Shown: piece after piece, positions 3,206-22,437 of the stretch
Layout: every line of letters begins with the position of its first letter
Position numbering within the stretch: the first letter of the stretch is position 1
Assembly (NCBI GenBank): GCA_910579435.1
Contig: CAJTVF010000001.1
Coordinates: 34,412 to 98,411, forward strand
Origin: an uncultured Oscillibacter sp.
Lineage (GTDB): Bacteria > Bacillota > Clostridia > Oscillospirales > Oscillospiraceae
Length of the DNA: 64,000 nucleotides
Direction of reading: 5' to 3'
Program-made: the position numbers and the translations under genes
Notes under the pieces: generated by a model
Seen by the model: only the letters and a program-made list of their open reading frames with translations
Databases searched by the model: none
Told to the model about the DNA's origin: nothing

Positions 3206-5071
3206 ATGAAACCGAACGAGCAGAGTTATTCCAAGTCCAGGCGGCTGAAGAACCAGATCAAAGAAGTGGTGACGAATCCCTACAATGTCATTGTGGTCAT
3301 CGCCATCGTCCTTCTGACATATCTGATCGTCTTCCCGCTGGTGGATATGCTGTCCACCACCTTCCACCTGGCCCAGCGGGACCTGCGGTCCGTGCCCGGC
3401 GGGGTGGCCGGAGAATTCACCTTCTATTATTGGCAGCGGCTGCTGGCCAGCGACCTGACCATGAAGCTGCTGGTGCAGCCCCTGGTAAACTCCCTGATCA
3501 TCGGTGCCGGCGTGTCTATCTGCGCCATTGCTCTGGGCTCCGTCCTGGCGTGGCTGATGGTCCGGTCGGATCTGCCTTTCAAGCCCTTCTTCTCCCTGGC
3601 GGTGATCATCCCCTATATGATCCCCTCTTGGGTGAAGTCCCAGGCGTGGCTGTCCATGTTCAAGACGCCCCGGGTCGGCGGCGCGCCGGGCTTCGTGGCC
3701 TCCATCATGCTCAATATGGGCATGTCCCCGGATGCCATCGAGACGGTGCTGGGCCCCATCGCCTACGGTGAAATTGCCGTCATCATCGTGTTGAGCCTGC
3801 ATTACTACGCCTATACATACCTCCTGGTCTCTGCGGCGCTGAACTCCATCAACTCCGAGCTGGAGGAGATGGGCGAGATTCAGGGCGCCAGCAAGAGCCT
3901 GATCCTCCGGCGGATCACCCTGCCCTTGGTGCTGCCCGCCATGCTGTCGGCGGTCATCTTGACCTTCTCCAAGGCCATCGGCACCTTCGGTACCATCAAC
4001 TATCTGGGCTCCCCGGTAAACTTCCGCACCCTGTCCAGCGAGCTCTACTCCAATAACCGTTCCCAGAACACCCAGACGGCCTTCGCCATGGCGATTCTGA
4101 TGATTTGCATAGCCTCTCTGTCCGTCTTTATCAACCAGAAGCTCATTGGGTCCCGGAAGTCCTACGCCACCATCGGCGGCAAGGGCGGACGGTCCACTCC
4201 CATTGGCTTGGGCGGCTGGAAACCCATCATCACCCTGATCCTCATTGTGTTCTTCATCGTGGGCATCATTATGCCGGTGATCATCCTGATCGTGGAGAGC
4301 TGTATGCTGAAGGAGGGCACCTATTCCCTGGAGAATTTCACCTTGTATTACTGGATAGGCGAGGGGAACCCGAACATCATGGAGGGCGTCCCGGGGATCT
4401 TTAAGAACAGCAACTTCAAGCTGTCCCTGTGGAACTCCCTGAAGCTGACCCTGGTCAACGGCGTCTTTGGCACCATCTTCGGCCAGATGCTGGGCTATAT
4501 CTGCGCCAAGGGCCGGGGAACCTTCCATGGCCGCCTGGTAGAGCAGCTGGTCTTTATCCCCTACCTGATCCCCTCCGTGGCCTTCGGCGGCATCTACCTG
4601 AGCATGTTCTCCAAACCTCAGACGGTCTTTGGCGTGACCTTGGTCCCGGCGCTGTACGGCACCTTCGCCCTGCTGACGCTGACCAGCGTCGTGAAGCATC
4701 TGCCCTTCGCCTCCCGGGCGGGCACTTCCAACATGATGCAGATCAGCGGCGAGCTGGAGGAGGCCGCCACCATTGAGGGCGCGGGCTTCTTCAAGCGGTT
4801 CATTAAGATCGTGTTCCCCCTGTCCAAGGGCGGATTCATTTCCGGCTTCATGCTGATCTTCGTCTCCATCATGAAGGAGCTGGACCTGATCATCCTGATC
4901 ATGACCCCGACGACCTCCACGCTGCCCTATCTCGCGTTCCAGTACCAGAACCAGAACTGCCCCCAGGCGTCCGACTGCGTGGCCATCGTGATGTTCTCCA
5001 TCGTGTTCCTGGTATACGCGCTGGCCAATATCTTCGGAGACGCCGACCTCGCCAAGAGCATGGCGGGCTGA
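3206..5071 (+). CDS. ABC transporter permease, fused double domain (FbpB/AfuB-like)
   Basis: Two EAA-like loops (ELEEMGEIQGAS, ELEEAATIEGAG) and many TM segments; start approximate. Confidence 0.9.
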   Translation: MKPNEQSYSKSRRLKNQIKEVVTNPYNVIVVIAIVLLTYLIVFPLVDMLSTTFHLAQRDLRSVPGGVAGEFTFYYWQRLLASDLTMKLLVQPLVNSLIIGAGVSICAIALGSVLAWLMVRSDLPFKPFFSLAVIIPYMIPSWVKSQAWLSMFKTPRVGGAPGFVASIMLNMGMSPDAIETVLGPIAYGEIAVIIVLSLHYYAYTYLLVSAALNSINSELEEMGEIQGASKSLILRRITLPLVLPAMLSAVILTFSKAIGTFGTINYLGSPVNFRTLSSELYSNNRSQNTQTAFAMAILMICIASLSVFINQKLIGSRKSYATIGGKGGRSTPIGLGGWKPIITLILIVFFIVGIIMPVIILIVESCMLKEGTYSLENFTLYYWIGEGNPNIMEGVPGIFKNSNFKLSLWNSLKLTLVNGVFGTIFGQMLGYICAKGRGTFHGRLVEQLVFIPYLIPSVAFGGIYLSMFSKPQTVFGVTLVPALYGTFALLTLTSVVKHLPFASRAGTSNMMQISGELEEAATIEGAGFFKRFIKIVFPLSKGGFISGFMLIFVSIMKELDLIILIMTPTTSTLPYLAFQYQNQNCPQASDCVAIVMFSIVFLVYALANIFGDADLAKSMAG

Positions 5072-5092
5072 GAGAAAGGAGACGAAACGATC

Positions 5093-6214
5093 ATGAGCAA
5101 AATTGTTCTGACGAATGTTGATAAATTCTATGGCAAGAACCATGTCTTGAAAAATTTGAACCTGACCATCGAAGACGGGGACTTCATGACCCTGCTGGGT
5201 CCCTCCGGCTGCGGCAAGACCACCACTCTCCGCGTGGTCTCCGGCCTGGAGAAGCCCCAGAGCGGCTTTATCCACATGGACGGCCAGGAGATCGTCAACG
5301 CGGCGGAGGCCAAATTCGCCCCGCCCAGCAAGCGAAACCTGAATCTGGTCTTCCAGTCCTACGCCCTGTGGCCCCACATGACGGTGTTCGACAACGTGTC
5401 CTTTGGATTGAAGATCCGCAAGGAGCCCGCCGACGTCATTGAGAAGAAGGTCGCCTCCGCCCTGGAGCGGATGCAGATCGGCGAGTACGCCAAGCGCTAT
5501 CCCACCGAGCTCTCCGGCGGCCAGCAGCAGCGTGTGGCCATTGCCCGGGCCATCGTGTCCGAGCCCCGGCTGCTCCTCCTGGACGAGCCGCTTTCCAACC
5601 TGGACGCCAAGCTCCGGGTGGACATGCGGTCCGAGCTCAAGCGTCTCCACCATGAGACGGGCACCACCATCATCTACGTTACCCACGACCAGGTGGAGGC
5701 CCTGACCATGTCTACCCGCATCGCCCTCTACCGCAAGGGCGAGCTGGTCCAGGTGGCTCCGCCCCTGGAGCTGTACGACAACCCCTGCAACCTGTACACG
5801 GCGGACTTCATAGGAAACCCCAGCATCAATTTCATCAAGGGCACGGCCCGGGTTGAGGCGTCTGGGATGACCGTGGACAGCGCCATGGGCCAGCAGACTT
5901 ATGACCGGGCTGATATGACTCCCGATGCCCCCACGAGCGGCACGGTGGAAGTGACCCTGGGCCTCCGGCCCGAGCAGGTGACCATTTCCAAGACCCAGGA
6001 CGACGAGCACCAGGTGGAAGCTCACGTTTACTCCGGTATGCCCGCCGGGTCCGAGACCCTGGTCACCGTCCGGGTGGGGAAGGACCTGGTGACGGTGAAG
6101 GAGCTGGGCTCCACCCACTACGGCAGCGACGAAAAAGTGTTCCTGGGCTTCAATCCCAAGAAGATCAACGTCTTCGAGACCGCCAGTGAAAACCTCATCA
6201 AGTACTGCGTCTGA
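5093..6214 (+). CDS. ABC transporter ATP-binding protein (PotA/FbpC/MalK-like, C-terminal TOBE)
   Basis: Walker A GPSGCGKTT, signature LSGGQQQR, Walker B LLLLDEP. Confidence 0.95.
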   Translation: MSKIVLTNVDKFYGKNHVLKNLNLTIEDGDFMTLLGPSGCGKTTTLRVVSGLEKPQSGFIHMDGQEIVNAAEAKFAPPSKRNLNLVFQSYALWPHMTVFDNVSFGLKIRKEPADVIEKKVASALERMQIGEYAKRYPTELSGGQQQRVAIARAIVSEPRLLLLDEPLSNLDAKLRVDMRSELKRLHHETGTTIIYVTHDQVEALTMSTRIALYRKGELVQVAPPLELYDNPCNLYTADFIGNPSINFIKGTARVEASGMTVDSAMGQQTYDRADMTPDAPTSGTVEVTLGLRPEQVTISKTQDDEHQVEAHVYSGMPAGSETLVTVRVGKDLVTVKELGSTHYGSDEKVFLGFNPKKINVFETASENLIKYCV

Positions 6215-6286
6215 GCTGTGACCCCGCGGCAAAGGCCGCTTATACCCGAGGAATAAAACGGAAGATTTTTAAGGAGGAAAAGAATC

Positions 6287-7540
6287 ATGTTGAAGCGCAA
6301 AAATATCCTGGCCTGTCTGCTGGCCCTGGTGATGCTGCTGAGCCTGGCCGCCTGTGGAGGCGGCGGCGGAGACAGCCAGCCCAGCGGCGGAGACTCCCAG
6401 CCCTCCGGCGATGCCGGGCAGGCCGCTCCGGCGGACCCCGCCTCCGGAGACCTGACGGAGTGGGAGCAGAGTTCCGGCATCTACAACACCGATGAGACCG
6501 ACGAGGAGCTGTATCAGAAGGCCCTGGAAGAGGGCGCCACGGTGACCCTGTATTCCATCTCCTCCCGCTGCACCAAAGTGGCCGACGCCTTTATGGAGAA
6601 GTATCCCGGCCTGGAGTGCGTTCCCTTTGACATCTCCACCAACGACCTGCTGGAGAAGGTGACCAAGGAGTACGAGGCGGGAGCCCCCACGGCGGACGTG
6701 GTCCACATCAAGGACCAGGACGGCTCCATGTACCTGGAGTATGTAGCGAATAAGATTTTCTATAACTTCAAGCCCGCCGACATTTTCTCTCACATCGATC
6801 CCATCTACACCGAGACCCAGACCCCGCTGTACATTGAGCTGACCCAGCTTTTCTACAACACCGAAGCCTATCCCGACGGTTCCCCCATCACCAACCTCTG
6901 GCAGCTCACCGAGCCCCAGTGGAAGGGCAAGATCATGATGCAGAACCCTCTGGACAACTTGGCCTGGGGCTCCTGGATCGCCGGCTTCTGCGTGGGCGAG
7001 GAGCCCCAGCGCTTGGCCGACGCTTATAAAAACCTCTACGGTGAGGAGCTGACCCTCTCCGACGGCTGCGAGAACGCGGGCTATGAGTTCCTCAAGCGGC
7101 TCCATGCCAACGAGCCCATCTTCACCGCTTCCTCCGACGAAATCGCCGAGTCCGTGGGCACCCCCGGCCAGTCCGATCCCCCGGTGGGCTTCTGCGCCTC
7201 CTCCAAGCTCCGTAAGGCGGAGGAGAACGGCTGGCTGTTCGCTCCCGTGAACCTGGAGCCCGACACCGGCATCCCCGCCGTGAACACCCTGTATATTGTG
7301 GAAGGCAGCGAGCATCCCTCCGCCGCCAAGCTCCTGGTCCGCTTCATGATGGGCGGCGTGGACGGCGATATCGGCGGCTACAAGCCCTTCAACACCCTGG
7401 GCGGCTGGCCCGTCCGGGACGACCTGGCTCCCGCCGAGGGCTCCACTCCCTTCGCCGAAATCAACGTGGCTCCTTTCGACGCTACCGAGATCTATTACAA
7501 CTACAACACCGTCCGCGATTTCTGGCAGCAGCTGGGCTAA
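6287..7540 (+). CDS. ABC substrate-binding lipoprotein (AfuA/FbpA-like class)
   Basis: Lipobox LLSLAAC, G/S-rich linker, acidic binding domain with W.DL..P.WKGKI-like segment (WQLTEPQWKGKI). Confidence 0.85.
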   Translation: MLKRKNILACLLALVMLLSLAACGGGGGDSQPSGGDSQPSGDAGQAAPADPASGDLTEWEQSSGIYNTDETDEELYQKALEEGATVTLYSISSRCTKVADAFMEKYPGLECVPFDISTNDLLEKVTKEYEAGAPTADVVHIKDQDGSMYLEYVANKIFYNFKPADIFSHIDPIYTETQTPLYIELTQLFYNTEAYPDGSPITNLWQLTEPQWKGKIMMQNPLDNLAWGSWIAGFCVGEEPQRLADAYKNLYGEELTLSDGCENAGYEFLKRLHANEPIFTASSDEIAESVGTPGQSDPPVGFCASSKLRKAEENGWLFAPVNLEPDTGIPAVNTLYIVEGSEHPSAAKLLVRFMMGGVDGDIGGYKPFNTLGGWPVRDDLAPAEGSTPFAEINVAPFDATEIYYNYNTVRDFWQQLG

Positions 7541-7586
7541 GCGGAGGGAGAAAAACCATCCTGTTTTGATTTGAGCACCGCAAGAA

Positions 7587-7619
7587 GCGGCGGGCGGATG
7601 TCTGCCCGCCGCTTCTTCT
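7587..7619 (+). terminator. Rho-independent terminator after ABC operon
   Basis: GCGGCGGGCGGA/TCTGCCCGCCGC stem followed by TTCTT. Confidence 0.6.
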
Positions 7620-7638
7620 GCCAAGCTTGCTTTTATCA

Positions 7639-7667
7639 TTGCGTTTCACCCGCCCGGTGTTTATAAT
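7639..7667 (+). promoter_or_regulatory. Sigma-A promoter for second cargo operon
   Basis: TTGCGT, 17 nt, TATAAT. Confidence 0.6.
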
Positions 7668-7729
7668 GCAAAGGGAGAGTCTGCGTATTTTGACCCGAGC
7701 TGATCGCCCGGCTCTGGAGAGGAGCGCCT

Positions 7730-8434
7730 ATGAGTCTTTTTATCGACAAGCACAACCGGAGAAAAAGCCCCTTAGCCCTGGCAGCTTTCGGTGCGGCCCT
7801 ACTGTATTTTTGTGTGTTCGGGTTCCTTTACGCCGTCTTGGCGGAGCCCCTTTACGGCCATGTGCGGCTGGGCAGTCCGGCGGCTACCACGGCCGCCCAT
7901 AGTGTGATAATCGCTCTGGTGGGAACAGCGGCTTGCTGCCTGCTTTTCCTGCTGGAAGATAAACGGGTGGCGCCTCTGGGCTTTGCCGGATTGACAGTAG
8001 TTCTGGGGATGTTTTACGCCGCCGCCTTGATGCTGGAAGGAGAGGCGCGGAGCCTGATGATCCAGTTGATCACTATGTACGGCCTGTCCCCGGTCCTGAT
8101 AGGCAACGCCGTGGCTTGGCCGATCTATTTCAAGATGAAAAAGGCTGCTCCCACGCCAAAGCGCAGGAAGACCGTTCAGCAGGAGCTGATGGAGGCGGCG
8201 GCCCGAGAAGCCGAGAAGCAGGAGCGGAAACAAGCGCGGCAGGTGAAAAAGGGCCGGATTCCGGCCCCGCCGGAGGCGGCGGAGCCCGATCCTCCCCCCA
8301 AGCCGCCGGAGTCCCCCTCTCCGGAGGAGGCCCTGTTCGGCCCGGAGCCCGGGCCCAGCGCGTTCCGCTCTGAGGAAGAGGAAGCCATGCTTCTCTACAT
8401 GGACGACGATGATGATGAAACAGGCGACGATTAA
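7730..8434 (+). CDS. Hypothetical membrane protein (about 4 TM helices, Pro/acidic C-tail)
   Basis: Hydrophobic N-terminal two-thirds, then a charged coiled segment, Pro-rich stretch and DDDDDETGDD end; RBS GGAGGAG. Confidence 0.7.
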   Translation: MSLFIDKHNRRKSPLALAAFGAALLYFCVFGFLYAVLAEPLYGHVRLGSPAATTAAHSVIIALVGTAACCLLFLLEDKRVAPLGFAGLTVVLGMFYAAALMLEGEARSLMIQLITMYGLSPVLIGNAVAWPIYFKMKKAAPTPKRRKTVQQELMEAAAREAEKQERKQARQVKKGRIPAPPEAAEPDPPPKPPESPSPEEALFGPEPGPSAFRSEEEEAMLLYMDDDDDETGDD

Positions 8435-9434
8435 GGATGTGGCGGCCATGGCGGGAGTCAGCGCCGCCACGGTGTCCCGGGCCCTGGACGACCGCCCGGA
8501 GATCAGCGCCGAGACCAAGGAAAAGGTCCGGGAGGCCTGCCGCTGCCTGGGCTATGTGCCCAACGCCGCCGCCCGGGGCCTGACGGGCCGCAAGACCCAC
8601 GTCATCGGCATGGTGGTGCCCGACGTGTCCAACCCCTATTTCTCCGGCATGGCCACGGCCATCGAGGCCCGGGCCGCTCAGGAGGGCTACCGGGTCCTGC
8701 TGAGCAATTCCATGCGCAGCGAGGAGCAGGAGATTCGGGCCATCGACCAGTTTCTGGCCAGGCAGATCGACGGGCTGCTGGTGGCGGCCATCTCGCCCCA
8801 GTCCCAGGCCCGCCACGGGGCGCTGCTCCGGGGACTGCCCTGCGTGTATCTGGGGGTGAACCACAGCGAGGCGTGCAGCTATGTGATGACGGACAACACC
8901 GTGGGAGCCTATGAGGCCACCCGGTATCTGCTGGACCTGGGCCACCGGGACATCCTCTTCTTCGGCGGGCGGGAGACCTCCCGCACCCGGGAGCTCCGGG
9001 TCGAGGGCTTCCACCGGGCTATGGCGGAGGAGGGCCTGACGGGCCGGGAGCTGGCGGCTGTGGGAGATGTGCGCCAGCTGCGCCAGTGGAGCTATGAGCG
9101 GGCCCTGGAGCTCTTCGAGTCCGGGCCGCCGCCGGACGCCATCTTCGCCTTTTCGGACATTACGGCCCTGAAGATTATGGAGGCGGCGGAGGAGCGGGGC
9201 GTCCGCATCCCGGAGGACGTGTCCCTGCTGGGCTACGACAACATCTCCTTCGCGGCCCTGCCCCGCATCGACCTGACCACCGTCTCCCAGCGGAAATTCC
9301 GGGCGGGGGAGATCGCGGTAACCCGGCTGCTGGAGCAGATCCGGGGGAAAAAGGAACAGACGGCGGACCTGCTCCAGCCGGAGCTGATTGTGCGGTCCAC
9401 CTGCATTAAAAAAGAAGGAGGCGGGTCACTATGA
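8409..9434 (+). CDS. LacI-family transcriptional regulator (second copy)
   Basis: ATIKDVAAMAGVSAATVSRAL HTH; start is one of ATG 8409/8412/8415 and overlaps the upstream gene. Confidence 0.95.
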   Translation: MMMKQATIKDVAAMAGVSAATVSRALDDRPEISAETKEKVREACRCLGYVPNAAARGLTGRKTHVIGMVVPDVSNPYFSGMATAIEARAAQEGYRVLLSNSMRSEEQEIRAIDQFLARQIDGLLVAAISPQSQARHGALLRGLPCVYLGVNHSEACSYVMTDNTVGAYEATRYLLDLGHRDILFFGGRETSRTRELRVEGFHRAMAEEGLTGRELAAVGDVRQLRQWSYERALELFESGPPPDAIFAFSDITALKIMEAAEERGVRIPEDVSLLGYDNISFAALPRIDLTTVSQRKFRAGEIAVTRLLEQIRGKKEQTADLLQPELIVRSTCIKKEGGGSL

Positions 9435-10465
9435 GGGGACTGCCCAACGAGGAGCGGCAGCGCTTGGGAGCTCTGCTGGAACATGCTTCCCAGGAGGAAG
9501 TCATGGCGAGGATTCCCCAGTTTTCCCAGGCGGAGGTTCACAATCTGGCCCCCGTCTCGCCCCAGGCCCGGCTGGACCTGGGCGTGCTGGTGTTCAACAT
9601 GGAGCGGGGCGTGTGCCTGGAGGAGCTGGGGGACTTCCTGGAGGACTGCCCGGCGGTCCGGCCCTTTGACGTGATCCTCGCCAACGAGCTGGACGACGGC
9701 TGCGTCCGCTCCGGGGGAAAGAACACCACCCTGGAGCTGGCGGAGCGGCTGGGGATGAACGCGGTGTTCGGCCTGGAGTTCATCGAGCTGGTGAACGGGG
9801 AGGACCCCAAGGGCTTCCACGGCAACGCCATTTTCTCCCGCTGGCCCGTTAAGCGGGCCAAGGTGGTCCGCCTGCCGGAGCAGTACAACTGGTACTTTGA
9901 CCGCCAGAGGCGCATCGGCGGGCGGCTGGCTATCCTGGCGGAGCTGGACGCGGCGGGAAAATCCATAGGCGTGGGGACCATCCATCTGGAGAACCGGACC
10001 CACGGGCCGGGCCGCCGGGCCCAGCTGGAGGCCGTGCTGAGGGAGGCGGAGGCCATGTTCCCCGGCATGCCCGTCGTCCTGGGCGGCGACCTGAACACCA
10101 ACACCTTCGACGGCCGGGACAAGGACGCCATCCAGGCCGTGGCGGGGAGCGCGGAGCTCCAGCGCCGCTGCCTGGAGGATGTGGCCGCCTGGGAGGAGTG
10201 CCTCCCGGCGGCGGAGGCGGCGGGTTACCGCCTCCTGCCGGAGCGGGCCGTGCCCACCCGGCGCAAGCCCCTCCCCGGTGGAGGACACCTGGACCTTCGG
10301 CTGGACTGGCTGCTGGTCCGGGGCCTGGAGGCGAAGGAGAGCCGCACCATCTCCACCCGGAAGGCGGACTGCGGCTTCGCCCGGCCCGGCAGCGCCCTGG
10401 CGGCGTTCACCGGGGAGGAGCTTTCCGATCACAACGCGGTCTGGGCGTCCTGCGCCCTGGAGTGA
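9431..10465 (+). CDS. Endonuclease/exonuclease/phosphatase (EEP) family phosphoesterase, cytoplasmic
   Basis: Motifs FN(M), ANELD, GNAIFSR, HLE, GGDLNT, LDWLL, SDH; no signal peptide. Confidence 0.85.
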   Translation: MRGLPNEERQRLGALLEHASQEEVMARIPQFSQAEVHNLAPVSPQARLDLGVLVFNMERGVCLEELGDFLEDCPAVRPFDVILANELDDGCVRSGGKNTTLELAERLGMNAVFGLEFIELVNGEDPKGFHGNAIFSRWPVKRAKVVRLPEQYNWYFDRQRRIGGRLAILAELDAAGKSIGVGTIHLENRTHGPGRRAQLEAVLREAEAMFPGMPVVLGGDLNTNTFDGRDKDAIQAVAGSAELQRRCLEDVAAWEECLPAAEAAGYRLLPERAVPTRRKPLPGGGHLDLRLDWLLVRGLEAKESRTISTRKADCGFARPGSALAAFTGEELSDHNAVWASCALE

Positions 10466-10479
10466 AAAGGAGAAATCAC

Positions 10480-11262
10480 ATGCTGAACACCGTATTATTT
10501 GATATGGGCGGGACCCTGGAGGACATTTGGAACAACGAGGAGACCCTGGCCGCGGTGATGGAAAAGCTCCAGGCCATGCTCCGCGCGGCGGGGCTGGAGC
10601 CCGGCTGCGGGCCGGAGGCGTTCCGGGAAAAGGTCCTGGCGGGACTGAGAGCCTACAAGAGCTGGAGCGAGTCCGTGTGGCTGGAGAAGAAGCCGGAGGA
10701 AATCTGGCCGGACTTCTATCTGAAGGCCTTTGACTTCGACCGGGAGAAGCTGATCCCCATCACCGAGGACCTGGCCAACATGTGGGAGCTGACCTATTTC
10801 CACCGGGAGCTCCGGCCCGGGGTCCGGGAGATGCTGGAGGAGCTGGAGCGCCGGGGCTACAAGCTGGGCGTGGTGTCCAACAACGCCTCCCTCTACAACG
10901 TGTTCAACGTGCTGGAGGACTACGGCATCCGGCATTTCATGCGGGACGTGACGGTATCCAGCGTCACGGGCTACCGCAAGCCCCACCCGGAGATTTTCCG
11001 GATTTCCTTCCGGCAGATGCAGGTGAGGGCGGAGGACTGCGTCTATGTGGGGGACACGATCTCCCGGGACATCATCGGCGCCAAGCGGGCGGGCTTCGCC
11101 AAAGCGGTGCAGATCGGCTCCCATCTCTCCGCCGAGAAGGACGCGGCGGTGAAAGACGCGGCGGAGAAGCCGGACGCGGTCATTTCGGACATCCGGGAGC
11201 TAACGGCGTGGCTGGACGAAATCAACCCCGCCATGGCGCCCAAGGCGGCGCGGGAGGTGTGA
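10480..11262 (+). CDS. HAD-superfamily hydrolase (subfamily IA)
   Basis: Motif I FDMGGTL, motif II VSN, motif III RKPHPEIF, motif IV VGDTISRDIIGA; ATG 10480 with RBS AAGGAG. Confidence 0.9.
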   Translation: MLNTVLFDMGGTLEDIWNNEETLAAVMEKLQAMLRAAGLEPGCGPEAFREKVLAGLRAYKSWSESVWLEKKPEEIWPDFYLKAFDFDREKLIPITEDLANMWELTYFHRELRPGVREMLEELERRGYKLGVVSNNASLYNVFNVLEDYGIRHFMRDVTVSSVTGYRKPHPEIFRISFRQMQVRAEDCVYVGDTISRDIIGAKRAGFAKAVQIGSHLSAEKDAAVKDAAEKPDAVISDIRELTAWLDEINPAMAPKAAREV

Positions 11263-11265
11263 GCG

Positions 11266-12156
11266 ATGAAAAAACAGTATGACGTTCTGGTGATTGGCCC
11301 CGTGTCCCTGGACCACAACATCGACTACCAGGGCAACGAGCGGAAAGAAGTGGGCGGGGCCGTGGTGGCCTCCGGCTTCGCGGCGGCGGGGAGCGGAAAC
11401 AAAACCGCCCTCTTCACCAAGCTGAACCCCGCCGACGCCGACGTTGAGGCCCGTTTCGCCGGGTCCGGCGCGGACCTGTACTGGAAGCCCTCCAGGGCCA
11501 CCTGCTCCATCCGGAACCAGTACTTCACCGCCGACAAGGAGAAGCGCTCCTGCACCTCCATGGGGGTCTGCGATCCCTTCCGGTTCGACGAGCTGCCGGA
11601 CGTGGAGGCGAAGATTTACCACTTCGCCGGGCTGGTCTACGGGGACTTCGACGGCCCCCTCTTCGCCGAGGCGGCGAAGCACGGCAAGGTGGCCGTGGAC
11701 GTCCAGTGCCTCCTGCGGCACGTGGAGCCGGACAAGACCATGGCCTTCCATGACTGGGCGGAGAAGCGGGAGTACCTGCCCTGCATCGACTACCTGAAGA
11801 CCGACGCCGCCGAGGCGGAAATTCTCACGGGCCTGACGGACCGGGCGGAGGCGGCGAAGCTGCTCCACAGCTGGGGAGCGAAAGAGGTCCTGATTACCCA
11901 CAACACGGAGGTGCTGGCCTACGGCGGGGACAAGATTTACACCTGCCCCATCAAGGCCCGGAACCTCTCCGGCCGGACGGGCAGGGGGGACACCACCTTC
12001 GCCGGGTATATCACGGAGCGCCAGCGGGCGGGCATTGAGGAGGCCCTGCTGTACTGCACGGCCCTGGTGTCCCTGAAAATGGAGACCCCCGGCCCCTTCC
12101 AGGGGAGCCGGGAGGATGTGCTGGCGTATATCCGTGCGTTCTACCAGGGGGCGTAA
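11266..12156 (+). CDS. PfkB/ribokinase-family kinase, probable PPi-dependent myo-inositol kinase (TM0415-like)
   Basis: GRTGRGDT replaces the usual GAGD anion-hole motif; DVQCLLR, YLKTD and SLKMETPGP segments match my recollection of Thermotoga TM0415. Confidence 0.8.
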   Translation: MKKQYDVLVIGPVSLDHNIDYQGNERKEVGGAVVASGFAAAGSGNKTALFTKLNPADADVEARFAGSGADLYWKPSRATCSIRNQYFTADKEKRSCTSMGVCDPFRFDELPDVEAKIYHFAGLVYGDFDGPLFAEAAKHGKVAVDVQCLLRHVEPDKTMAFHDWAEKREYLPCIDYLKTDAAEAEILTGLTDRAEAAKLLHSWGAKEVLITHNTEVLAYGGDKIYTCPIKARNLSGRTGRGDTTFAGYITERQRAGIEEALLYCTALVSLKMETPGPFQGSREDVLAYIRAFYQGA

Positions 12157-12167
12157 TAGAGAAGGAC

Positions 12168-12213
12168 AGAGGCGGCGTGTTCCTTGACGCGGGGGACACG
12201 CCGCCTTGTTTTT
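12168..12213 (+). terminator. Terminator closing the cargo operon
   Basis: GGCGGCGTGT/ACACGCCGCC stem followed by TTGTTTTT. Confidence 0.6.
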
Positions 12214-12406
12214 GCCGGTTTACTTGGAACATTTTATAATATTGCATATTGGCAAATAAAGAAATAGTTCCTTAAGTGGATCCCGGTATCCATAGTGGAA
12301 CATACCATAAACGGTAAAAATGCAAAAGCGAAAAACTATTTTGTCTTAGTGCCTTATAAGCTTGAGCTTCGGTGTGTTCTAATAAAAATTGATATAAGGA
12401 TTTTTA

Positions 12407-13834
12407 TTAGGATGATCGCTTGCGCCGATTCGGCATACTTTCTTCCAGCCATTCTGTGAACGCATCCAGGGTCAAGTTTCCACTCAAGCAATCATCTCGT
12501 TTTTGAACGGCCTCATATTGCCACTGCTTGAATTTGTCTCGCTTGAGGCTTCCGGCCTGGACCCTGGCAAAGTAGCGTTTGTAGTATTTCTGATAGACGC
12601 TCAGAGGATTCCTGCCGTCGTTGTCTTTCAGCTTTTCCAGATATGTTTCCTGTGCCGCAAGCTGCTGGCAGGTGCGGTGCTCTCCATCCGCGATGCGGTC
12701 ACAGTAGGCCCCGTGGTAGTTGCCTTTGACGATGAAATATTTCCCGCAGCGTCTGCACTTTTGAAACTCCAGTCCGGCCTCTAAGATTTTTGTGAATTCC
12801 AGATACAGCATGTCGCGCAGGTTGCTGCAGGTATAGCTTGAGGAAATGAAGCAGGGAATTTTGTAACAGAGCTCCAGCTCATACTCCGGCAGACCGTACT
12901 CCTCACAAAACGCTTTCTGCTCAGGGGACAGGATGATCTCTTGGTCAACGTCAATTTTATCAAGGTCAGTACCAAATGGCATTTGCGTGCCACGGGGATC
13001 GCAGGAATCCGGCTGAAAGGTCTCCTGACGCTTATGGCAGGAGGGAACGCCTTTGATTTTACACCAAAGGCTGTAGCGTTCCGACGGATACAACCGGCCA
13101 AGGACTTCTGGGCGGTAGCTTTTGTCCAGACAGAACTCGATGAGCTCCAGGAACTCTGTCTGCAAGAACAAGAGATAATGTCGGTAATACTCCAACGCTT
13201 TTTCTGTCCTGCGTGTGAACTGTGGAGGAAAGGTGGCAGTGTAAATGGAAGAGTAGGAGACCTCGCTCAGAGTAGGGAAGACCTCTGCGTACAACTCGTA
13301 GAGTTGGATAACGCTCTCCTCTATACGATGAATCTTTTTCGGATCGTCAGTGGTCTGGGCCAGTTCCTGATACGTTGCGGCACAATGATCAAAAGCGGAC
13401 TTGAAGTCAGCGTAGCAAAAGTTCAAGACGCCCTCGCCCAGCGGCACGACAACCGTCGTGCCGCTGAGCGCGTTAATCCTCTGCTCTGCTGCGTCGTAAG
13501 GGTAGAGCGGGTCTGGCGGCTGCACCTCAAAAATGCTTCCAAACTTCTCTCGGATTCTTTGAAGCTCCGCACGCCAGAACTCCACCTCCGCTTCGGTGAC
13601 CTCCCGTTGATAAGTCTTGGGAATGGGATACTCCAAATCCTCGTACAGATCAAACATGCATTCGAACTCGTAAACTGGGCTGACGTTGATGTACAGCCTT
13701 TTCTCTTTCTCCAAATAAGAAACGCTATTCTCAAAGAAGGAGGGGGAGAGGTCCTCGCAGCCGCTCCACTGTGATCGGTAATTTGCGTGTTCAGAATTCT
13801 GGTATTCGGACAGATCAAAGTTGGGACGAACCAT
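12407..13834 (-). CDS. DUF6076-like protein with C-terminal Cys cluster (IME-associated)
   Basis: C-terminal LEFTKILE...KCRRCGKYF...YCDR...TC...YKRYFARV pattern; RBS AGGAGG. Confidence 0.65.
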   Translation of the reverse strand: MVRPNFDLSEYQNSEHANYRSQWSGCEDLSPSFFENSVSYLEKEKRLYINVSPVYEFECMFDLYEDLEYPIPKTYQREVTEAEVEFWRAELQRIREKFGSIFEVQPPDPLYPYDAAEQRINALSGTTVVVPLGEGVLNFCYADFKSAFDHCAATYQELAQTTDDPKKIHRIEESVIQLYELYAEVFPTLSEVSYSSIYTATFPPQFTRRTEKALEYYRHYLLFLQTEFLELIEFCLDKSYRPEVLGRLYPSERYSLWCKIKGVPSCHKRQETFQPDSCDPRGTQMPFGTDLDKIDVDQEIILSPEQKAFCEEYGLPEYELELCYKIPCFISSSYTCSNLRDMLYLEFTKILEAGLEFQKCRRCGKYFIVKGNYHGAYCDRIADGEHRTCQQLAAQETYLEKLKDNDGRNPLSVYQKYYKRYFARVQAGSLKRDKFKQWQYEAVQKRDDCLSGNLTLDAFTEWLEESMPNRRKRSS

Positions 13835-13919
13835 GAGAGATGCCGCCTCCTTTTTGAAAATCAGGTTTCGTTCAAAAATCGAGAATCTATATCACGCCAG
13901 AAAATATTATACAGAACTC

Positions 13920-13948
13920 TTGAGCCCGTGTCAAATCTCTGCTATCCT
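13920..13948 (+). promoter_or_regulatory. Promoter of HTH-xis-mob transcript
   Basis: TTGAGC, 17 nt, extended -10 TG-c-TATCCT. Confidence 0.45.
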
Positions 13949-13972
13949 GTTCGCAGGACAGGAGGAGATTGG

Positions 13973-14296
13973 ATGCGGTATTTTAGCAAACAGCTTTTTC
14001 AAATCGACGCGGAGATTTTTTATCACAATCTCACCGCGCACCAACTGGCGGTGTACAGTTATCTGGTATTCTGCTCCGGCAGCCGGAACGCCTGCCAATT
14101 GAACGTTCGGACCATCGCCACCGCCTGCGGCTGTTCGGAATCCAGCGTCAGGCGCGCACTGCACGGATTGAGGGAACGTGGTTTTATTGATGTGAAGGGT
14201 GCTGTGCAAAAGCTAAGGAGCGGCGGTTATCGGCGGACCTGCAACCGCTACTATCTGCTGGACCGGAGCGAGTGGAGACCGCCGAATGAAGCGTAG
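13973..14296 (+). CDS. Small winged-HTH protein (HTH_36/replication-organiser-like)
   Basis: LTAHQLAVYSYL...TIATACGCSESSVRRALHGLRERGFI; ATG 13973 with RBS AGGAGG. Confidence 0.7.
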   Translation: MRYFSKQLFQIDAEIFYHNLTAHQLAVYSYLVFCSGSRNACQLNVRTIATACGCSESSVRRALHGLRERGFIDVKGAVQKLRSGGYRRTCNRYYLLDRSEWRPPNEA

Positions 14297-14352
14297 TGCC
14301 GTTCCAAATAGAGCGAGGAAATGTATGAATAAAAAGGCGTCGGAGGGTGACA

Positions 14353-14583
14353 ATGAAAGATTCTGTGTACAAGAGCTACGATGAGCTGCCGCTGTTCCTC
14401 AACGCAAAAACAGTGGCAAAGGTGCTGGGCGTCTCTCTGTCCAGCGGTTATGAGTTAATGCACCAGCAGGACTTCCCAACGCTGAAAATAGGGAACCGCA
14501 TTGTGGTTCCCAAAGAGAGGTTTGTCCAGTGGGTGGAGCGAAACACGAGTGGTGGTGACGACGATGGAAGTCTCGAAATTTGA
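14353..14583 (+). CDS. Excisionase-like HTH_17 protein
   Basis: YDELPLFLNAKTVAKVLGVS...YELM...FP.LKIG.RIVVPKE.F..W pattern; RBS GGAGG. Confidence 0.85.
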   Translation: MKDSVYKSYDELPLFLNAKTVAKVLGVSLSSGYELMHQQDFPTLKIGNRIVVPKERFVQWVERNTSGGDDDGSLEI

Positions 14584-14920
14584 GACTGGTAAAGATAAGA
14601 GCAAGATGCCCCGTGTGACGACTTGTGAGCCCTCGTGTGCGATTTTCTATCGAGGGCAGGGCAGACCTCCGGGGAAGCAGTCTGCACCAAAATGCAACGA
14701 GTTACGAGGGATGAAAGAAAAGCAGGAGAAAGCCCTGGCGCTTTCCGCGCGCCAGGGCGGGTACTTCTGCCCGCAGTGCGGGCAGTTGCGGGGGCAAAGA
14801 CTGACGCTTTTTTGACGGGGGAGCAGACCGATTGACGCTGATATTCCCAAGGGTCCCTCTAAGCCCTGCCGTTGAAGGCTTTGGCATGACGCTAATTTGG
14901 AATAAGGAGGATATTTCAGC

Positions 14921-15343
14921 ATGAATGAAGATAAAAAGCGGCACACGGTCTGGCTCACTCCGGATGCGTGGAGTCAGGTGGAAAGCAGCTATACAAAAGA
15001 CAACTGCACCACGAAAAATGAGTACATCGAGAAGGCAATCCGGTTCTACACTGGCTACCTAAATACGCAAAACGCCGCCAGCTATCTCCCGCGTGTCCTT
15101 GCGGATGTGCTGGAGGGCAAGCTGGGAGCATTAGGCACCCGGATCGGCAAGTTGCTGTTCAAGCTGGTCGTGGAGCAGGACATGACCTCGAATATCACCG
15201 CGGCAGTGAATCAGATTCCCTTGGATGATCTGGAACGTCTGCGGGCACGCTGCATACGGGACGCCAAAAAGACCAACGGGGTCATCAATCTCGAGGATGC
15301 CGTCAGGTACCAGAATGGATGGAGTGATCAATGGTCAGGCTGA
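14921..15343 (+). CDS. Putative relaxosome accessory (ribbon-helix-helix) protein
   Basis: N-terminal RHTVWL beta-strand plus NEYIEKAIRFY helix; overlaps the relaxase start. Confidence 0.6.
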   Translation: MNEDKKRHTVWLTPDAWSQVESSYTKDNCTTKNEYIEKAIRFYTGYLNTQNAASYLPRVLADVLEGKLGALGTRIGKLLFKLVVEQDMTSNITAAVNQIPLDDLERLRARCIRDAKKTNGVINLEDAVRYQNGWSDQWSG

Positions 15344-17247
15344 TTCAAAAGAGCGGCTACATCAAAACAGGCAACGCGTCCGGGTACATGAAGTACATCG
15401 CAACTCGTGAGCGAGTGGAAAAGCTGGAAGGCAGTGCTCCTGTGACGAAAGGTCAACAGCAGCTCATTGAAAATCTGCTCCGAGATTTTCCCGACGCCAA
15501 TAAGTTGGACGAATACAGCGGCTATCGTTTGGCGCCAACCACTGGCAACGCCTCCGCGTTGATCTCTGCGGTGCTGGATGCGAACGCGCACAAGTTCACG
15601 GATAGAGATGGCTACATGAAGTATATCGCAACCCGGCCCCGTGTTGAGCGCCACGGTGAGCATGGCCTATTCAGTAATCGGCCGGTGTCGCTGGACGCCG
15701 CGCTCAAAGAAGTCGAGACGCACACCGGAAACGTGTGGACGTTCATCTGGTCCCTGCGTCGTGAGGATGCGGCGCGTCTTGGCTATGACCATGCAGAGAG
15801 CTGGCGAAAGCTGATCAAGGCCCATCAGGCGGAGATAGCGGAGGCCATGAAAATTCCACCGGACCAGCTCCGCTGGTATGCTGCGTTTCACGACGAAGGT
15901 CACCACCCTCATGTCCACGCCATGGTCTGGTCAGCCGATCCAAAGCAGGGTCGGCTGACTAAAGAGGGCGTCAAGATGATTCGCTCCAAGCTCACCAATG
16001 ATATTTTCCAGGATGAGATGTACACGCTCTATCAAGAGAAAGATGTTTCCTACAAGGAGCTCGTCGCAATGTCACGGCGGACCATGAAAGAACTGCTAGA
16101 GAAGATGCGTTCAGGCTCCTGCGGCAGCCCGGTGATTGAAAACAAGCTGCTGGAGCTGTCACAGTTGCTGGAAACGGTCAAGGGTAAAAAGGTCTATGGC
16201 TACTTGAAGAAGCCGGTCAAGGCTCAGGTGGATGCCATCGTGGACGAGCTGGCGAAGCTCCCAGAGGTGGCGGAGTGCTATGAAGTTTGGAACGGCCTGC
16301 GAGATGAACTGGAGGGTTACTACAAGGACGTGCCTCGTCATCGGCTACCGCTCTCACAGCAGAAGGAATTCCGTACCATCAAGAATCTGGTCATTCAGGA
16401 GGCGGAAAATCTGCGGCAGGGTGTGTTCACCTTCGAGGACGCGGAGATGAACGATGAGCCGGAAATGGATTCGGAAGTCCTTCCGCAAGGCGTTGGCTAC
16501 CAGGCGGCAACGCTGCTTTACGATGACGAAATCACGCAGGCAGAAAAACGAGAAGCGCTGAGAGTGCTGGAGCAATTGTGGGACAAAGATTTTACCTCAG
16601 CTGCATACCACTTGGGCAGAGCGTACCGGGATGGCCTTGGCTTGCTGCCGGATGATGAGAAGGCGGAAAAGTGGTTCCGGCGCTCTGCTGATACAGGAAA
16701 TGTGCATACGCTGTATGTGTTGGGAAAACTGCTTCAAGAGCAAGGGCGGCTCAGTGAGGCGGTGTCGTGGTACGAGCATGCCTGTAAATCTGACAGCCAG
16801 TACGCTCAGTACTCCCTTGGAAAGATGTACCTCCTGGGCAATGGCGTTCCGAAAGACGTCAGCAGGGCAATTCAGTTGCTGAGGTCTTCCGCAAATCAAG
16901 GAAACCAATATGCACAGTATGTTCTCGGAAAGCTCTGCCTGCAGGGCAAGGAGGTAGAAAAGAATCCCGAGGCGGCAGAGTATTGGCTGACGAGGTCTGC
17001 CGTTCAGGGTAACGCACCTGCCCAGTTCCTCCTGGACCACCGGCAGCATAATCCGTCAGTTCTTCTCTGTACTGCGAGGCTCCTCCACCACATGAGCAAT
17101 ATTTTCTGGGAGACGCTTCCGCCGCCTAATCCGGCGGGCGGCCATGTGGAGAGTAAGCTCATGGGGCGGATTCGTGAAAAGAAAATCGCCATGGGCCATA
17201 AGCCGGACGATCACGAGGAATACCAGGGTCCATCAATGTCGATGTGA
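15331..17247 (+). CDS. MobP3/MobL-type relaxase with C-terminal Sel1-like repeats
   Basis: Two YMKYIATR motifs, HUH motif HDEGHHPHVH, Sel1 repeats (AAYHLGRAYRDG, AQYSLGKMYLLG, AQYVLGKLCLQG). Confidence 0.85.
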   Translation: MVRLIQKSGYIKTGNASGYMKYIATRERVEKLEGSAPVTKGQQQLIENLLRDFPDANKLDEYSGYRLAPTTGNASALISAVLDANAHKFTDRDGYMKYIATRPRVERHGEHGLFSNRPVSLDAALKEVETHTGNVWTFIWSLRREDAARLGYDHAESWRKLIKAHQAEIAEAMKIPPDQLRWYAAFHDEGHHPHVHAMVWSADPKQGRLTKEGVKMIRSKLTNDIFQDEMYTLYQEKDVSYKELVAMSRRTMKELLEKMRSGSCGSPVIENKLLELSQLLETVKGKKVYGYLKKPVKAQVDAIVDELAKLPEVAECYEVWNGLRDELEGYYKDVPRHRLPLSQQKEFRTIKNLVIQEAENLRQGVFTFEDAEMNDEPEMDSEVLPQGVGYQAATLLYDDEITQAEKREALRVLEQLWDKDFTSAAYHLGRAYRDGLGLLPDDEKAEKWFRRSADTGNVHTLYVLGKLLQEQGRLSEAVSWYEHACKSDSQYAQYSLGKMYLLGNGVPKDVSRAIQLLRSSANQGNQYAQYVLGKLCLQGKEVEKNPEAAEYWLTRSAVQGNAPAQFLLDHRQHNPSVLLCTARLLHHMSNIFWETLPPPNPAGGHVESKLMGRIREKKIAMGHKPDDHEEYQGPSMSM

Positions 17248-17252
17248 CAAGT

Positions 17253-17282
17253 TCAAAATTTGAGTCGCATAAACAAAGATAA
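17253..17282 (+). repeat. Bipartite direct repeat, copy 2 (TCAAAATTTG-N6-ATAAACAAAGATAA)
   Basis: Immediately after the relaxase stop; matches 1667-1697. Confidence 0.6.
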
Positions 17283-17381
17283 AACTCTCCCCGCAAAAAG
17301 TTCTCAAAAAGTTTCGGTTAAAGGGTAGCTATTGGCGCGGAGTTAGGGTATTGTGTGTTGCTGCAAAGGAGGTAGGCGGAA

Positions 17382-17678
17382 ATGAGAAAAACCCTGGAAG
17401 ATCTCTACTACGGCAACATCACACCCTGTGAACAGCAAATGACGCCTGGCTCAGAGTTGAAGCGGGCAGTGGACCGTGCCGCTAAGTGCGAGGAGCAGCT
17501 GATGGAACTCCTCAACGAGGAGGGTCAGCATATTCTCACGAGGCTTACCCGCTCTCAGCAGGAGGCCAACAGCATTACAGCAACCGAAAATTTCATCCTG
17601 GGCTTCCGTCTCGGTATTCGCCTGATGGCGGAGTGCATGGATGACAACGACGGCGCAATCAGAAGCGGAGGTGAATAG
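17382..17678 (+). CDS. DUF6809-like small protein
   Basis: LEDLYYGNI.P...E.FI.GFRLG.RLM.E pattern typical of clostridial mobile elements. Confidence 0.7.
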   Translation: MRKTLEDLYYGNITPCEQQMTPGSELKRAVDRAAKCEEQLMELLNEEGQHILTRLTRSQQEANSITATENFILGFRLGIRLMAECMDDNDGAIRSGGE

Positions 17679-17681
17679 CAA

Positions 17682-18839
17682 GTGGCAAAGCGCAGGGCAA
17701 ACGGCGAAGGAAATATTCGCAAACGCAAGGATGGCCGCTGGGAAGGGCGCTATACGGCAGGCTATGATTCAGAAACTGGAAAGCGCGTTACGAAAAATGT
17801 CCTTGGCAGAACCCAGGCTGAGGTCAAAGAAAAATTGAAATCCGCCATAGGCGATAGCCAGCGGCTGGATATTTCCAAGGCCGGGAATTACACAGTAGCG
17901 ACGTGGGTACGAACATGGTATGAGGTTTACGCCGAGCCTCGTATCCGGCCAAACACACGGGAGTACTACATGAATTATATTGAAAACCACATCGTTCCAG
18001 GTATCGGCAAAATCATGCTGGACAAATTGACGACCATTCAAATTCAGCGGTTTTACAACAATCTCCAGAAAAATGGCCGAGTCCAGCGCAAGGGATATCC
18101 TGAACTGAAAGATAAGACGCTCAGCCCGCGAGTGGTCAGAGGTGTTCATACGCTTTTGAGCAACTGTCTGGACCAAGCGGTATCGGAGCGATTGATTCTC
18201 GTGAATCCTGCTCAGGGCTGTAAATTGCCAAAGCTGGAGAAAAAGGAAATGCACATCCTGCCGCAGGAGAAGATTGGTATGTATCTGGCAGAGGCAGAAC
18301 GCCGGGGACTGCTGGCAGCCTTCTATCTAGAACTGACGACGGGCTTGAGAAGGGGAGAACTGCTTGCCCTCCTTTGGACGGACTTGAATGCCGAGGCCAG
18401 AACGATCTCCGTTACAAAACAGGTCAACCGTATTAAAGGGGAATTGGTGGTCAGTCCGCCGAAGACGCAGAACTCTGTACGGACGCTGGCAATTCCTCAG
18501 CAAGCAGTTGACCTCCTGATTGAGGAACACAAAAAGCACCCAGGTAATGCATATATGTTCCCATCGCCAAAAACCGGAACGATGTATGATCCGGATGCGT
18601 TCCGGCGGACTCATGATAAAATCCTGAAAGCAATAGGCGCGGAACACGTTCGGTTCCACGATATGAGGCACCTTTTTGCAACTCTGTCCTTGAAGAATGG
18701 TGTGGACGTGAAAACCCTCTCCGGTGCCCTGGGGCACTACTCGGCAGGGTTTACGCTGAACACGTATACCCACGCCACAACACAGATGAAGCAGGATGCG
18801 GCAGACACCATCGGAGCGGTGATCAGCAGTCAAATGTGA
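17682..18839 (+). CDS. Tyrosine integrase (Tn916/phage-like, with N-terminal arm-binding domain)
   Basis: RANGEGNIRKRKDGRWEGR N-terminus; catalytic R (TGLRRGE), HxxR (HDMRH), LGH, Y (YTH). Confidence 0.95.
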   Translation: MAKRRANGEGNIRKRKDGRWEGRYTAGYDSETGKRVTKNVLGRTQAEVKEKLKSAIGDSQRLDISKAGNYTVATWVRTWYEVYAEPRIRPNTREYYMNYIENHIVPGIGKIMLDKLTTIQIQRFYNNLQKNGRVQRKGYPELKDKTLSPRVVRGVHTLLSNCLDQAVSERLILVNPAQGCKLPKLEKKEMHILPQEKIGMYLAEAERRGLLAAFYLELTTGLRRGELLALLWTDLNAEARTISVTKQVNRIKGELVVSPPKTQNSVRTLAIPQQAVDLLIEEHKKHPGNAYMFPSPKTGTMYDPDAFRRTHDKILKAIGAEHVRFHDMRHLFATLSLKNGVDVKTLSGALGHYSAGFTLNTYTHATTQMKQDAADTIGAVISSQM

Positions 18840-19020: not shown

Positions 19021-19024
19021 CCGA

Positions 19025-19101
19025 TGGTGGAGACTACTGGACTCGAACCAGTGGCCTCATGCGTGTGAAGCATGCGCTCTAACCAGCTGAGCTAAGCCTC
19101 C
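19025..19101 (-). tRNA. tRNA-Val (CAC)
   Basis: 77-nt cloverleaf GGAGGCTTAGCTCAG...CATGC-TTCACAC-GCATG...GGTTCGAGTCC...CTCCACCA. Confidence 0.97.
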
Positions 19102-22283: not shown

Positions 22284-22437
22284 AGCAGGTTCCTTTCGTC
22301 GTTTTTTGTCGATTGAATGTGTAAAAAAATTCCGCCGCCCGTCGGAGCCGCGGAAGAGGGTCCTCGCTGACAATTGCTTATTATATAGGAAAACCACCCG
22401 ATGGTCAAGACGCCGGGTGGTTTTTTGTGGAAACCAA

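Follow-up and report, generated by a model that had tools for sequence, protein, structure and literature searches.

A predicted pyrophosphate-dependent kinase of the TM0415 subclass on a putative mobilizable element of a gut Oscillibacter

The kinase gene and its locus

We analysed a 64-kb stretch of the genome of an uncultured Oscillibacter sp. (64,000 nucleotides, hereafter the window) and concentrated on one of its genes, which encodes a ribokinase-family protein related to TM0415, the pyrophosphate (PPi)-dependent myo-inositol kinase of Thermotoga maritima. The open reading frame (ORF) was intact, beginning with ATG and preceded by a ribosome-binding site, GGGAGGTG, located 7 nt 5′ of the start codon. 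It stood at the end of a compact series of genes on the same strand, after those for a 234-aa protein, a LacI-family regulator, an endonuclease/exonuclease/phosphatase (EEP) family protein and a HAD-superfamily hydrolase, and only 3 nt separated the HAD stop codon from the kinase ATG (Table 1). A second copy of the kinase gene was not found within the window.

Motif analysis placed the protein in the PfkB family, the match to Pfam PfkB (PF00294) being modest (42.5 bits against a gathering cut-off of 25.8, residues 113-276). The GXGD motif with the catalytic aspartate was present as G239-R-G-D242, and the Mg motif (NXXE-type) took the form of a DxxE variant, D180-A-A-E183, which is also found in TM0415. 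All NCBIfam sugar-kinase equivalogs scored far under their cut-offs, with ribokinase at 15-17 bits against approximately 300-341, and the label 'ribokinase' that NCBI and JGI give to close homologues is therefore unsupported.

Sequence and fold relationship to TM0415

When the protein was compared with all PDB sequences using phmmer, the TM0415 entries (1VK4, 5YSP/5YSQ and 7E4L) were the top matches, with E values of 3.5e-38 to 1e-36 over residues 7-286. The next PfkB protein followed at 8.8e-5, and MI3K_TK, the ATP-dependent myo-inositol 3-kinase of T. kodakarensis (PDB 3W4S, 4XF7), gave no sequence match at E≤1 in this search. An AlphaFold2 model of the kinase, built from 69 family sequences (pLDDT 96.9, pTM 0.93), had a ribokinase fold with a β-strand lid. 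A structural comparison with TM0415 had been proposed in an earlier reading of this DNA (the original prediction), and the best seven Foldseek matches of the model in the PDB were TM0415 chains (TM 0.82-0.91, rmsd 1.8-2.7 Å). MI3K_TK was the second-best structural match (TM 0.77-0.84), generic ribokinases came next at about 0.7, and the top 50 matches were all ribokinase-family structures. Judged by sequence or by structure, no ATP- or ADP-dependent member thus came as near to the kinase as TM0415 (TM≤0.84 for the others), with which it shares its fold and 34% identity across 272 aligned positions. From its sequence and predicted fold, the gene product is a specific member of the TM0415 subfamily.

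The donor site

TM0415 takes PPi and neither ATP nor ADP (Nagata et al. 2018, PMC5931981). Its residues K171, R229 and R232 bind PPi, and the corresponding alanine mutants retain 3-11% of the activity; F221, R232 and M266 occlude the ATP cleft, D234 acts as the catalytic base, and the strict published donor signature is K171/F221/R229/R232/M266 (PMC5931981). Within the literature collection that was searched, no later work on this subclass was found beyond that study.

To compare the two donor sites, TM0415 numbering was rebuilt from a HMMER alignment. All 25 published TM0415 residues were recovered on the correct letters (25/25), and the residue map was for this reason considered reliable. 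The complete PPi triad was present in the window kinase, K171, R229 and R232 corresponding to K178, R237 and R240, with the two arginines lying in the sequence G-R-T-G-R-G-D. T204, T230, D234, K265 and M266 corresponded to T211, T238, D242, K271 and M272, G239 and G241 aligned within RxGRGD, and the Mg-site residues D139, D173 and E176 to D145, D180 and E183. The sole difference in the donor site was the conservative replacement of F221 by I229, leaving four of the five residues of the strict signature (K/I/R/R/M). The original prediction had picked out K178 in YLKTD, I229, R237, R240 and D242 in GRTGRGD, M272 in SLKMETPGP, and D145, Q147 and R151; every one of these was located where it had been read and landed on its published TM0415 counterpart. 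What it had described as a PPi-donor signature held for the three basic residues, RxGRGD, the catalytic aspartate and M272, but one of its two 'bulky hydrophobic' residues is an isoleucine and not the phenylalanine of TM0415.

ATP-dependent members always have a small second residue in the GXGD motif, and ADP-dependent ones have Ile or Leu; an arginine at this position obstructs the nucleotide site and also binds PPi (PMC5931981). Because an arginine cannot stand in for the small residue required by ATP-dependent members, the sequence strongly indicates that PPi is the donor.

The acceptor site

With myo-inositol as the acceptor, the product of TM0415 is Ins(1)P, making the enzyme a PPi-dependent myo-inositol 1-kinase (PMC5931981). 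The original prediction had mistakenly named it a 3-kinase, which is the activity of the ATP-dependent T. kodakarensis enzyme. Hydrogen bonds to myo-inositol are made by D11, N78, Q141 and R145 of TM0415 (PMC5931981), and all four were kept in the window kinase as D16, N84, Q147 and R151. The exact alignment of Q147 and R151 with Q141 and R145 confirmed that the DxQxxxR segment of inositol kinases is present, as had been claimed.

The pocket lining of the window kinase reads S-G-G-A-I-C-L-T (S14, G30, G31, A32, I82, C96, L123 and T238). Six of these eight residues were identical to those of TM0415 (S9, G24-26, I76, S89, L116 and T230), the exceptions being G26 to Ala and S89 to Cys. The same lining pattern belongs to candidate No. 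17 of Supplementary Table 1 in the published survey, which is classed there as 'same acceptor as TM0415' (PMC5931981). S89 belongs to a pair of residues governing regiochemistry, as indicated by the title of PDB entry 7E4L, according to which N78L/S89L turns TM0415 into a 3-kinase. MI3K_TK has the acceptor-binding D, Q and R in common with the window kinase; unlike it, however, MI3K_TK uses ATP, is without the K/R/R triad and carries Leu in place of both N78 and S89; by the same title, these two positions set 3-OH regiochemistry. Since N84 is retained, a TM0415-like orientation of the acceptor, and hence a 1-kinase, is the better guess.

Two homologues in addition to TM0415 have been validated as phosphorylating myo-inositol with PPi but with neither ATP nor ADP, namely No. 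49 from Levilinea saccharolytica and No. 7 from Acanthamoeba castellanii (PMC5931981). The acceptor pockets differ from that of TM0415 by N78L/S89L/L116S in No. 49 and by I76C/S89Q in No. 7, and both enzymes yield products other than Ins(1)P. The window kinase pocket was nearer to that of TM0415 than either of these.

Conservation and spread of the family

We examined conservation in 119 close homologues and in 80 full-length representatives of clusters formed at 50% identity. Among the close homologues, the K/R/R/I/M combination was invariant but for one sequence, and the other mapped donor, Mg, acceptor and pocket-lining residues were also invariant. In the cluster representatives, K171 was found in 78, R229 in 75 and R232 in 73 of the 80, and about 70 kept the whole triad. 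The two hydrophobic positions varied, with F in 34, L in 14, I in 13, Y in 7 and W in 5 representatives at position 221, and M in 44, L in 21 and I in 3 at position 266. KRRFM was the combination in 18 representatives, KRRFL in 14 and KRRIM, that of the window kinase, in 11 (the third commonest); the DNQR acceptor tetrad was present in 54. Because the triad is conserved while positions 221 and 266 vary among hydrophobic residues, the real hallmark of the clade is the basic triad together with RxGRGD, the two 'fillers' being simply hydrophobic. The strict published pattern catches roughly one family member in four, and a search that insists on Phe at position 221 would overlook a large share of it (KRRFM in 18/80, as against approximately 70 with the triad). 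Nagata et al. proposed the signature for finding PPi kinases and for re-engineering ATP kinases, PPi being approximately 1000-fold cheaper (PMC5931981).

A protein search gave 5136 matches at E≤1e-5, the 120 best listed all being at least 86% identical, and an exhaustive search of representatives gave 166 clusters at E≤1e-30. PPi-dependent kinases are few, and the original prediction had called such sugar kinases rare. This could not be upheld for the TM0415 subclass, as close relatives were found in more than 546 GTDB species genomes, mostly of Oscillibacter, Dysosmobacter, Agathobaculum and other Oscillospiraceae, several of them with two copies. Metagenome proteins with 85% identity or more ran into the thousands. 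The subclass is thus abundant in the Firmicutes of the mammalian gut, a phylum with no entry in the published candidate tables (PMC5931981). Only three relatives, all distant (31-36% identity), were detected in a plasmid database, which held no known plasmid-borne precedent.

The original prediction had also considered a mesophilic host noteworthy. TM0415 comes from a hyperthermophile, and the host of the window kinase is indeed a mesophilic mouse-gut Oscillibacter-like bacterium of the Firmicutes. Levilinea and Acanthamoeba are non-thermophiles as well, and the ribokinase-family subclass is accordingly not limited to Thermotogae. The suggested novelty of a non-thermophilic member did not stand, given that the Levilinea and Acanthamoeba homologues were already published (PMC5931981).

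We also observed several single genomes in which two copies, each with 90% or more identity to the query, belong to different operons (L008/L021, L017/L019, L044/L066 and L036/L039), an unusually high conservation of paralogues across different contexts.

A predicted PPi-dependent polyol kinase

Taken together, we favour, with moderate confidence, the reading that the gene product is a soluble, ribokinase-fold TM0415-subclass kinase that uses Mg-pyrophosphate rather than ATP or ADP to phosphorylate a cyclitol or polyol, and that it is cargo of an element integrated at tRNA-Val (see below). By analogy with TM0415, K178, R237 and R240 would clamp the distal phosphate of PPi, and the proximal phosphate would be held by the backbone amides of G239, G241 and D242. 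R240, M272 and I229 may occupy the space that ATP-dependent relatives use for ribose and adenine, with D242 as the putative catalytic base. The acceptor, most likely myo-inositol, would be gripped by D16, N84, Q147 and R151 in the orientation seen in TM0415, giving a predicted 1-kinase.

Several observations weigh against this reading. The strict signature requires Phe at position 221, and I229 is hydrophobic but smaller, which could leave extra room in the nucleotide pocket; no assayed enzyme carries Ile at this position or the KRRIM combination, and both validated homologues, No. 49 and No. 7, have Phe. TM0415 has a Km of 12 mM for myo-inositol, which its authors hesitate to regard as the true acceptor, and two of the four signature-bearing homologues that they assayed were inactive on 14 acceptors (PMC5931981), so that the signature is no guarantee of inositol use. 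No recognisable inositol catabolic gene was found in the operon, and the phosphatase-type neighbours leave the direction and purpose of the phosphorylation unclear. Finally, a metagenome variant (L090:12070-12500, compared with window positions 11584-11927) had frameshifting deletions of 31 bp and 49 bp in the kinase gene, which cut the ORF down to 166 aa; this copy is either decaying or an artefact of assembly.

The isoleucine, the above-threshold match to Pfam PfkB and the 'ribokinase' names of close homologues would all agree with an ordinary ATP- or ADP-dependent PfkB sugar kinase, in which the TM0415-like residues are lineage history and the change from Phe to Ile has reopened the nucleotide pocket. 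We consider this quite improbable in view of the equivalog scores, the blocking arginine in GXGD, the conservation of K/R/R across the 119 close homologues and the failure of TM0415 itself to use ATP or ADP (PMC5931981). The favoured assignment does not overturn current understanding. The Ile-221 variant is common in the family, and the enzyme subclass is already known and widespread. It does offer a test case of how much the 'pocket-filling' residues count relative to the basic triad in donor selectivity.

The operon and its transcription

The genes and sites of the operon and of the element that carries it are given in Table 1.

Table 1. Positions of the features assigned to the element and its cargo operon, in window coordinates
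Feature	Position	Strand
attL, perfect 46-bp copy of the 3′ part of tRNA-Val	846-891	
DUF2442/DUF4160 (DhiT-like toxin) pair, left end of element	1030-1665	-
Another LacI-family regulator, oriented divergently to the ABC genes	1774-2808	-
ABC importer: fused double permease, ATPase with TOBE domain, Fe3+/2-AEP-type solute-binding protein	3206-7540	+
234-aa protein without family match; position conserved in related operons	7730-8434	+
LacI-family regulator; stop overlaps EEP start (ATGA)	8415-9434	+
EEP family protein, 344 aa, no apparent signal peptide, cytoplasmic	9431-10465	+
HAD-superfamily hydrolase (TIGR02253/CTE7-like), 260 aa	10480-11262	+
Kinase, TM0415-like PfkB/ribokinase family, 296 aa; predicted PPi-dependent polyol (myo-inositol-type) kinase	11266-12156	+
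Intrinsic terminator, 18-bp stem and T-run, 13 nt past the kinase stop; end of operon	about 12169-12217	+
Mobility module, GC 0.50-0.56	12407-18839	
DUF6076	12407-13834	-
HTH_36	13973-14296	
Excisionase-type HTH_17	14353-14583	
140-aa ORF of the mobility module	between HTH_17 and MobL	
MobL relaxase	15331-17247	
DUF6809	17382-17678	
Tyrosine integrase, adjoining the tRNA	17682-18839	
attR, the other 46-bp copy, lying within the intact tRNA-Val(CAC) gene (19025-19101, -)	19024-19069	

Mouse-gut metatranscriptome contigs with at least 99% identity covered positions 7000-12200. RNA contigs bridged the HAD/kinase junction as well as the junctions between the 234-aa protein, LacI and EEP genes, and in three of four runs the RNA depth dropped to about zero past position ~12225. 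As these contigs cover the operon and span its junctions, the operon is transcribed in vivo, with the caveat of DNA carry-over.

The partners of the kinase gave little indication of its acceptor. NCBIfam returned only generic names for them, and PDB sequence searches with the EEP protein, the solute-binding protein and the 234-aa protein gave either no match or generic Fe3+-type solute-binding proteins. The AlphaFold model of the EEP protein was mediocre (pLDDT 72.8), and its Foldseek matches to TDP2, nocturnin and sphingomyelinases (TM ~0.5) confirm the fold only. In contrast to TM0415, the window kinase is encoded outside any iol-type catabolic operon and is placed after LacI-EEP-HAD on a mobilizable island.

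Gene contexts of related kinases

We surveyed the gene contexts of 87 related loci whose kinases were 80-96% identical. At about 37 of them the kinase gene lay directly behind two tandem genes for MgtC-family membrane proteins, usually followed by a Na/Ala symporter (for example, L001:8255-10882). Eight loci had the order LacI, MBL-fold enzyme, TctCBA and kinase, approximately eight had the kinase immediately after an MBL-fold gene, seven had a GDPD gene adjoining the kinase, and three had the same arrangement as the window. In a 46%-identical relative (L094:29-2522), PHP and MgtC genes came after the kinase. Fusions of the kinase to GDPD, Fe-ADH, PHP, GH65 phosphorylase and PTP-like phosphatase domains were found among the cluster representatives (P0129, P0131, P0133, P0204 and P0264). 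A 35%-identical relative (L097:1190-13328) was flanked on one side by an IolE/IolI-type TIM-barrel gene and on the other by a PiT (PHO4) gene with a PhoU-like gene, with a sugar ABC importer and two Zn-dependent polyol-type dehydrogenases nearby. For distant representatives, the contigs retrieved were mostly too short for context.

The recurring theme of these contexts, phosphoester hydrolysis or transport together with a kinase, fits a released polyol such as inositol, and the adjacency or fusion to GDPD would fit release of inositol from glycerophosphoinositol. The same contexts bear on a second reading, in which the enzyme is a PPi-dependent TM0415-subclass kinase acting on something other than myo-inositol, be it another cyclitol, a keto-inositol, a sugar alcohol or a sugar supplied through the ABC importer, EEP and HAD proteins. 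Near-identical paralogues have different operon partners (an MgtC pair, TctABC with an MBL-fold enzyme, GDPD, or EEP with HAD), some relatives are fused to GH65 or Fe-ADH, the pocket departs from that of TM0415 at S89 and G26, and the 12 mM Km and the two inactive homologues described above led in the same direction, the authors themselves suggesting a different genuine acceptor for TM0415 (PMC5931981). On the other hand, all four inositol-bonding residues and six of the eight lining residues are as in TM0415, the Cys and Ala variants occur in candidates of the 'same acceptor' class (PMC5931981), and the GDPD association would fit inositol itself. We regard another acceptor as the less likely, though still a real, possibility. 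The recurrent pairing with phosphoesterases and MgtC provides a route to the physiological acceptor of the subclass.

PPi-dependent kinases such as PPi-PFK are reversible. It is thus conceivable that the enzyme works in reverse or near equilibrium, forming PPi from a polyol phosphate and Pi and so saving phosphoester energy in an energy-limited anaerobe, and the recurrent phosphoester-processing neighbours and the PiT/PhoU genes beside the distant relative would suit such a role. However, the co-encoded HAD and EEP proteins would hydrolyse phosphoesters and conserve no energy, and TM0415 has been characterised in the forward direction only (PMC5931981); we judge this reading to be very improbable.

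Returning to a forward PPi-dependent kinase, a broader and more doubtful proposal is that in gut Oscillospiraceae the enzyme serves as a shared PPi-driven 'trapping' step on varied uptake or phosphoester modules (the MgtC pair; TctABC with the MBL-fold enzyme; GDPD; PHP; EEP and HAD with an ABC importer), one of which was captured by an integrative mobilizable element and is spreading in mouse-gut strains. If so, strict anaerobes could salvage the cyclitol or polyol head-group of host, dietary or Bacteroides phosphodiesters without ATP cost. The pairing with MgtC, kept at 46% kinase identity, would then imply an unrecognised transport or regulatory role of the MgtC family.

Across these loci the pairing of MgtC-family genes with a PPi-type kinase is conserved, the natural kinase fusions are possible clues to the acceptor, and the locus of the 35%-identical relative is a polyol-catabolic cluster with phosphate handling next to the kinase.

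A putative mobilizable element carrying the operon

The original prediction had placed the kinase gene on a mobile element. This was borne out by two direct repeats of the tRNA-Val 3′ part, attL and attR, which were 18,178 bp apart and delimited an 18.2-kb island integrated at tRNA-Val. No match to type IV secretion system, conjugation-pore or coupling-protein families was obtained among the element ORFs scanned. Because the tRNA direct repeats are accompanied by an integrase, an excisionase and MobL without a conjugation-pore match, the island has the anatomy of an integrative mobilizable element (IME), with the operon and the importer as its cargo. The exact EEP protein was found on 212 contigs; wherever these were examined, operon and mobility genes occurred together. 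The DUF4160 ORF matched the NCBIfam type II toxin DhiT with an E value of 2e-21, under the model cut-off, and the DUF2442/DUF4160 pair is probably a stabilising toxin-antitoxin module.

In its integrase beside an intact tRNA, the tRNA-3′ repeat at its far end, the excisionase-type HTH protein, the relaxase without a type IV secretion system and the toxin-antitoxin-like pair, the island resembles Firmicutes IMEs that have a MobL-type relaxase and a tyrosine integrase acting at a tRNA 3′ end. It differs from them in that the cargo is a metabolic block (ABC importer and LacI-EEP-HAD-kinase) with a GC content of 0.66, as opposed to 0.50-0.56 in the mobility module. The arrangement suggests that a TM0415-type gene may move as cargo of a mobilizable island.

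A placement of the kinase outside the element was considered and rejected. Its grounds were a fall in GC content from 0.66 to 0.50 after the kinase terminator, the end of synteny at the kinase stop codon and the lack of an att repeat between 12.1 and 19.2 kb; it was overturned by the co-occurrence of operon and mobility genes on contigs and by a wider repeat search, which found attL.

The GC step is a mosaic of host-like cargo beside a lower-GC mobility module. In a related Oscillibacter genome the same operon (87% nucleotide identity) was followed by MnmE and PNPase, a chromosomal setting. This chromosomal copy and the host-like GC content of the cargo suggest that the element captured a resident operon.

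Metagenome contigs contained an identical element body with differing right-hand junctions, among which assembly chimeras are possible. The body was joined to tRNA-Val in L089, to the left end of an 84%-identical related element just past the att copy in L093 (10740-10960), a tandem-like arrangement, and in L090 (19430-19560) and L091 (18170-18230) to non-tRNA sequence beginning ATGGAA..GACAATC.GGATATTT. These junctions suggest movement or tandem accretion. Neither the empty site (attB) nor an attP junction was found. The runs with the exact sequence were mostly mouse-gut metagenomes.

Just to the left of attL, within the region 697-845, we observed a remnant resembling a tRNA T-arm, GGGGAGTTCGAACCCCTCC (~707-726), and contigs L089 and L092 parted from the window left of position 697. 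The remnant and the divergence suggest older integration scars or a variable region.

Between 20 and 55 kb the window consists of core chromosome, with genes for DapA, a LysA-type decarboxylase, PGK, iPGM, Prs, Mfd, thiolase, RNase Y and TatD. Just outside the element, on the far side of the tRNA cluster and of a MerR/GyrI-like regulator (19644-20462), lies the gene for a 703-aa protein that combines SLH domains with a GH25 muramidase domain (20502-22613, -). An IS110-family transposase (55721-56728, -) and a TraX-family protein (59748-60584, +) lie in lower-GC patches towards the right end of the window and represent mobile DNA unrelated to the kinase element.

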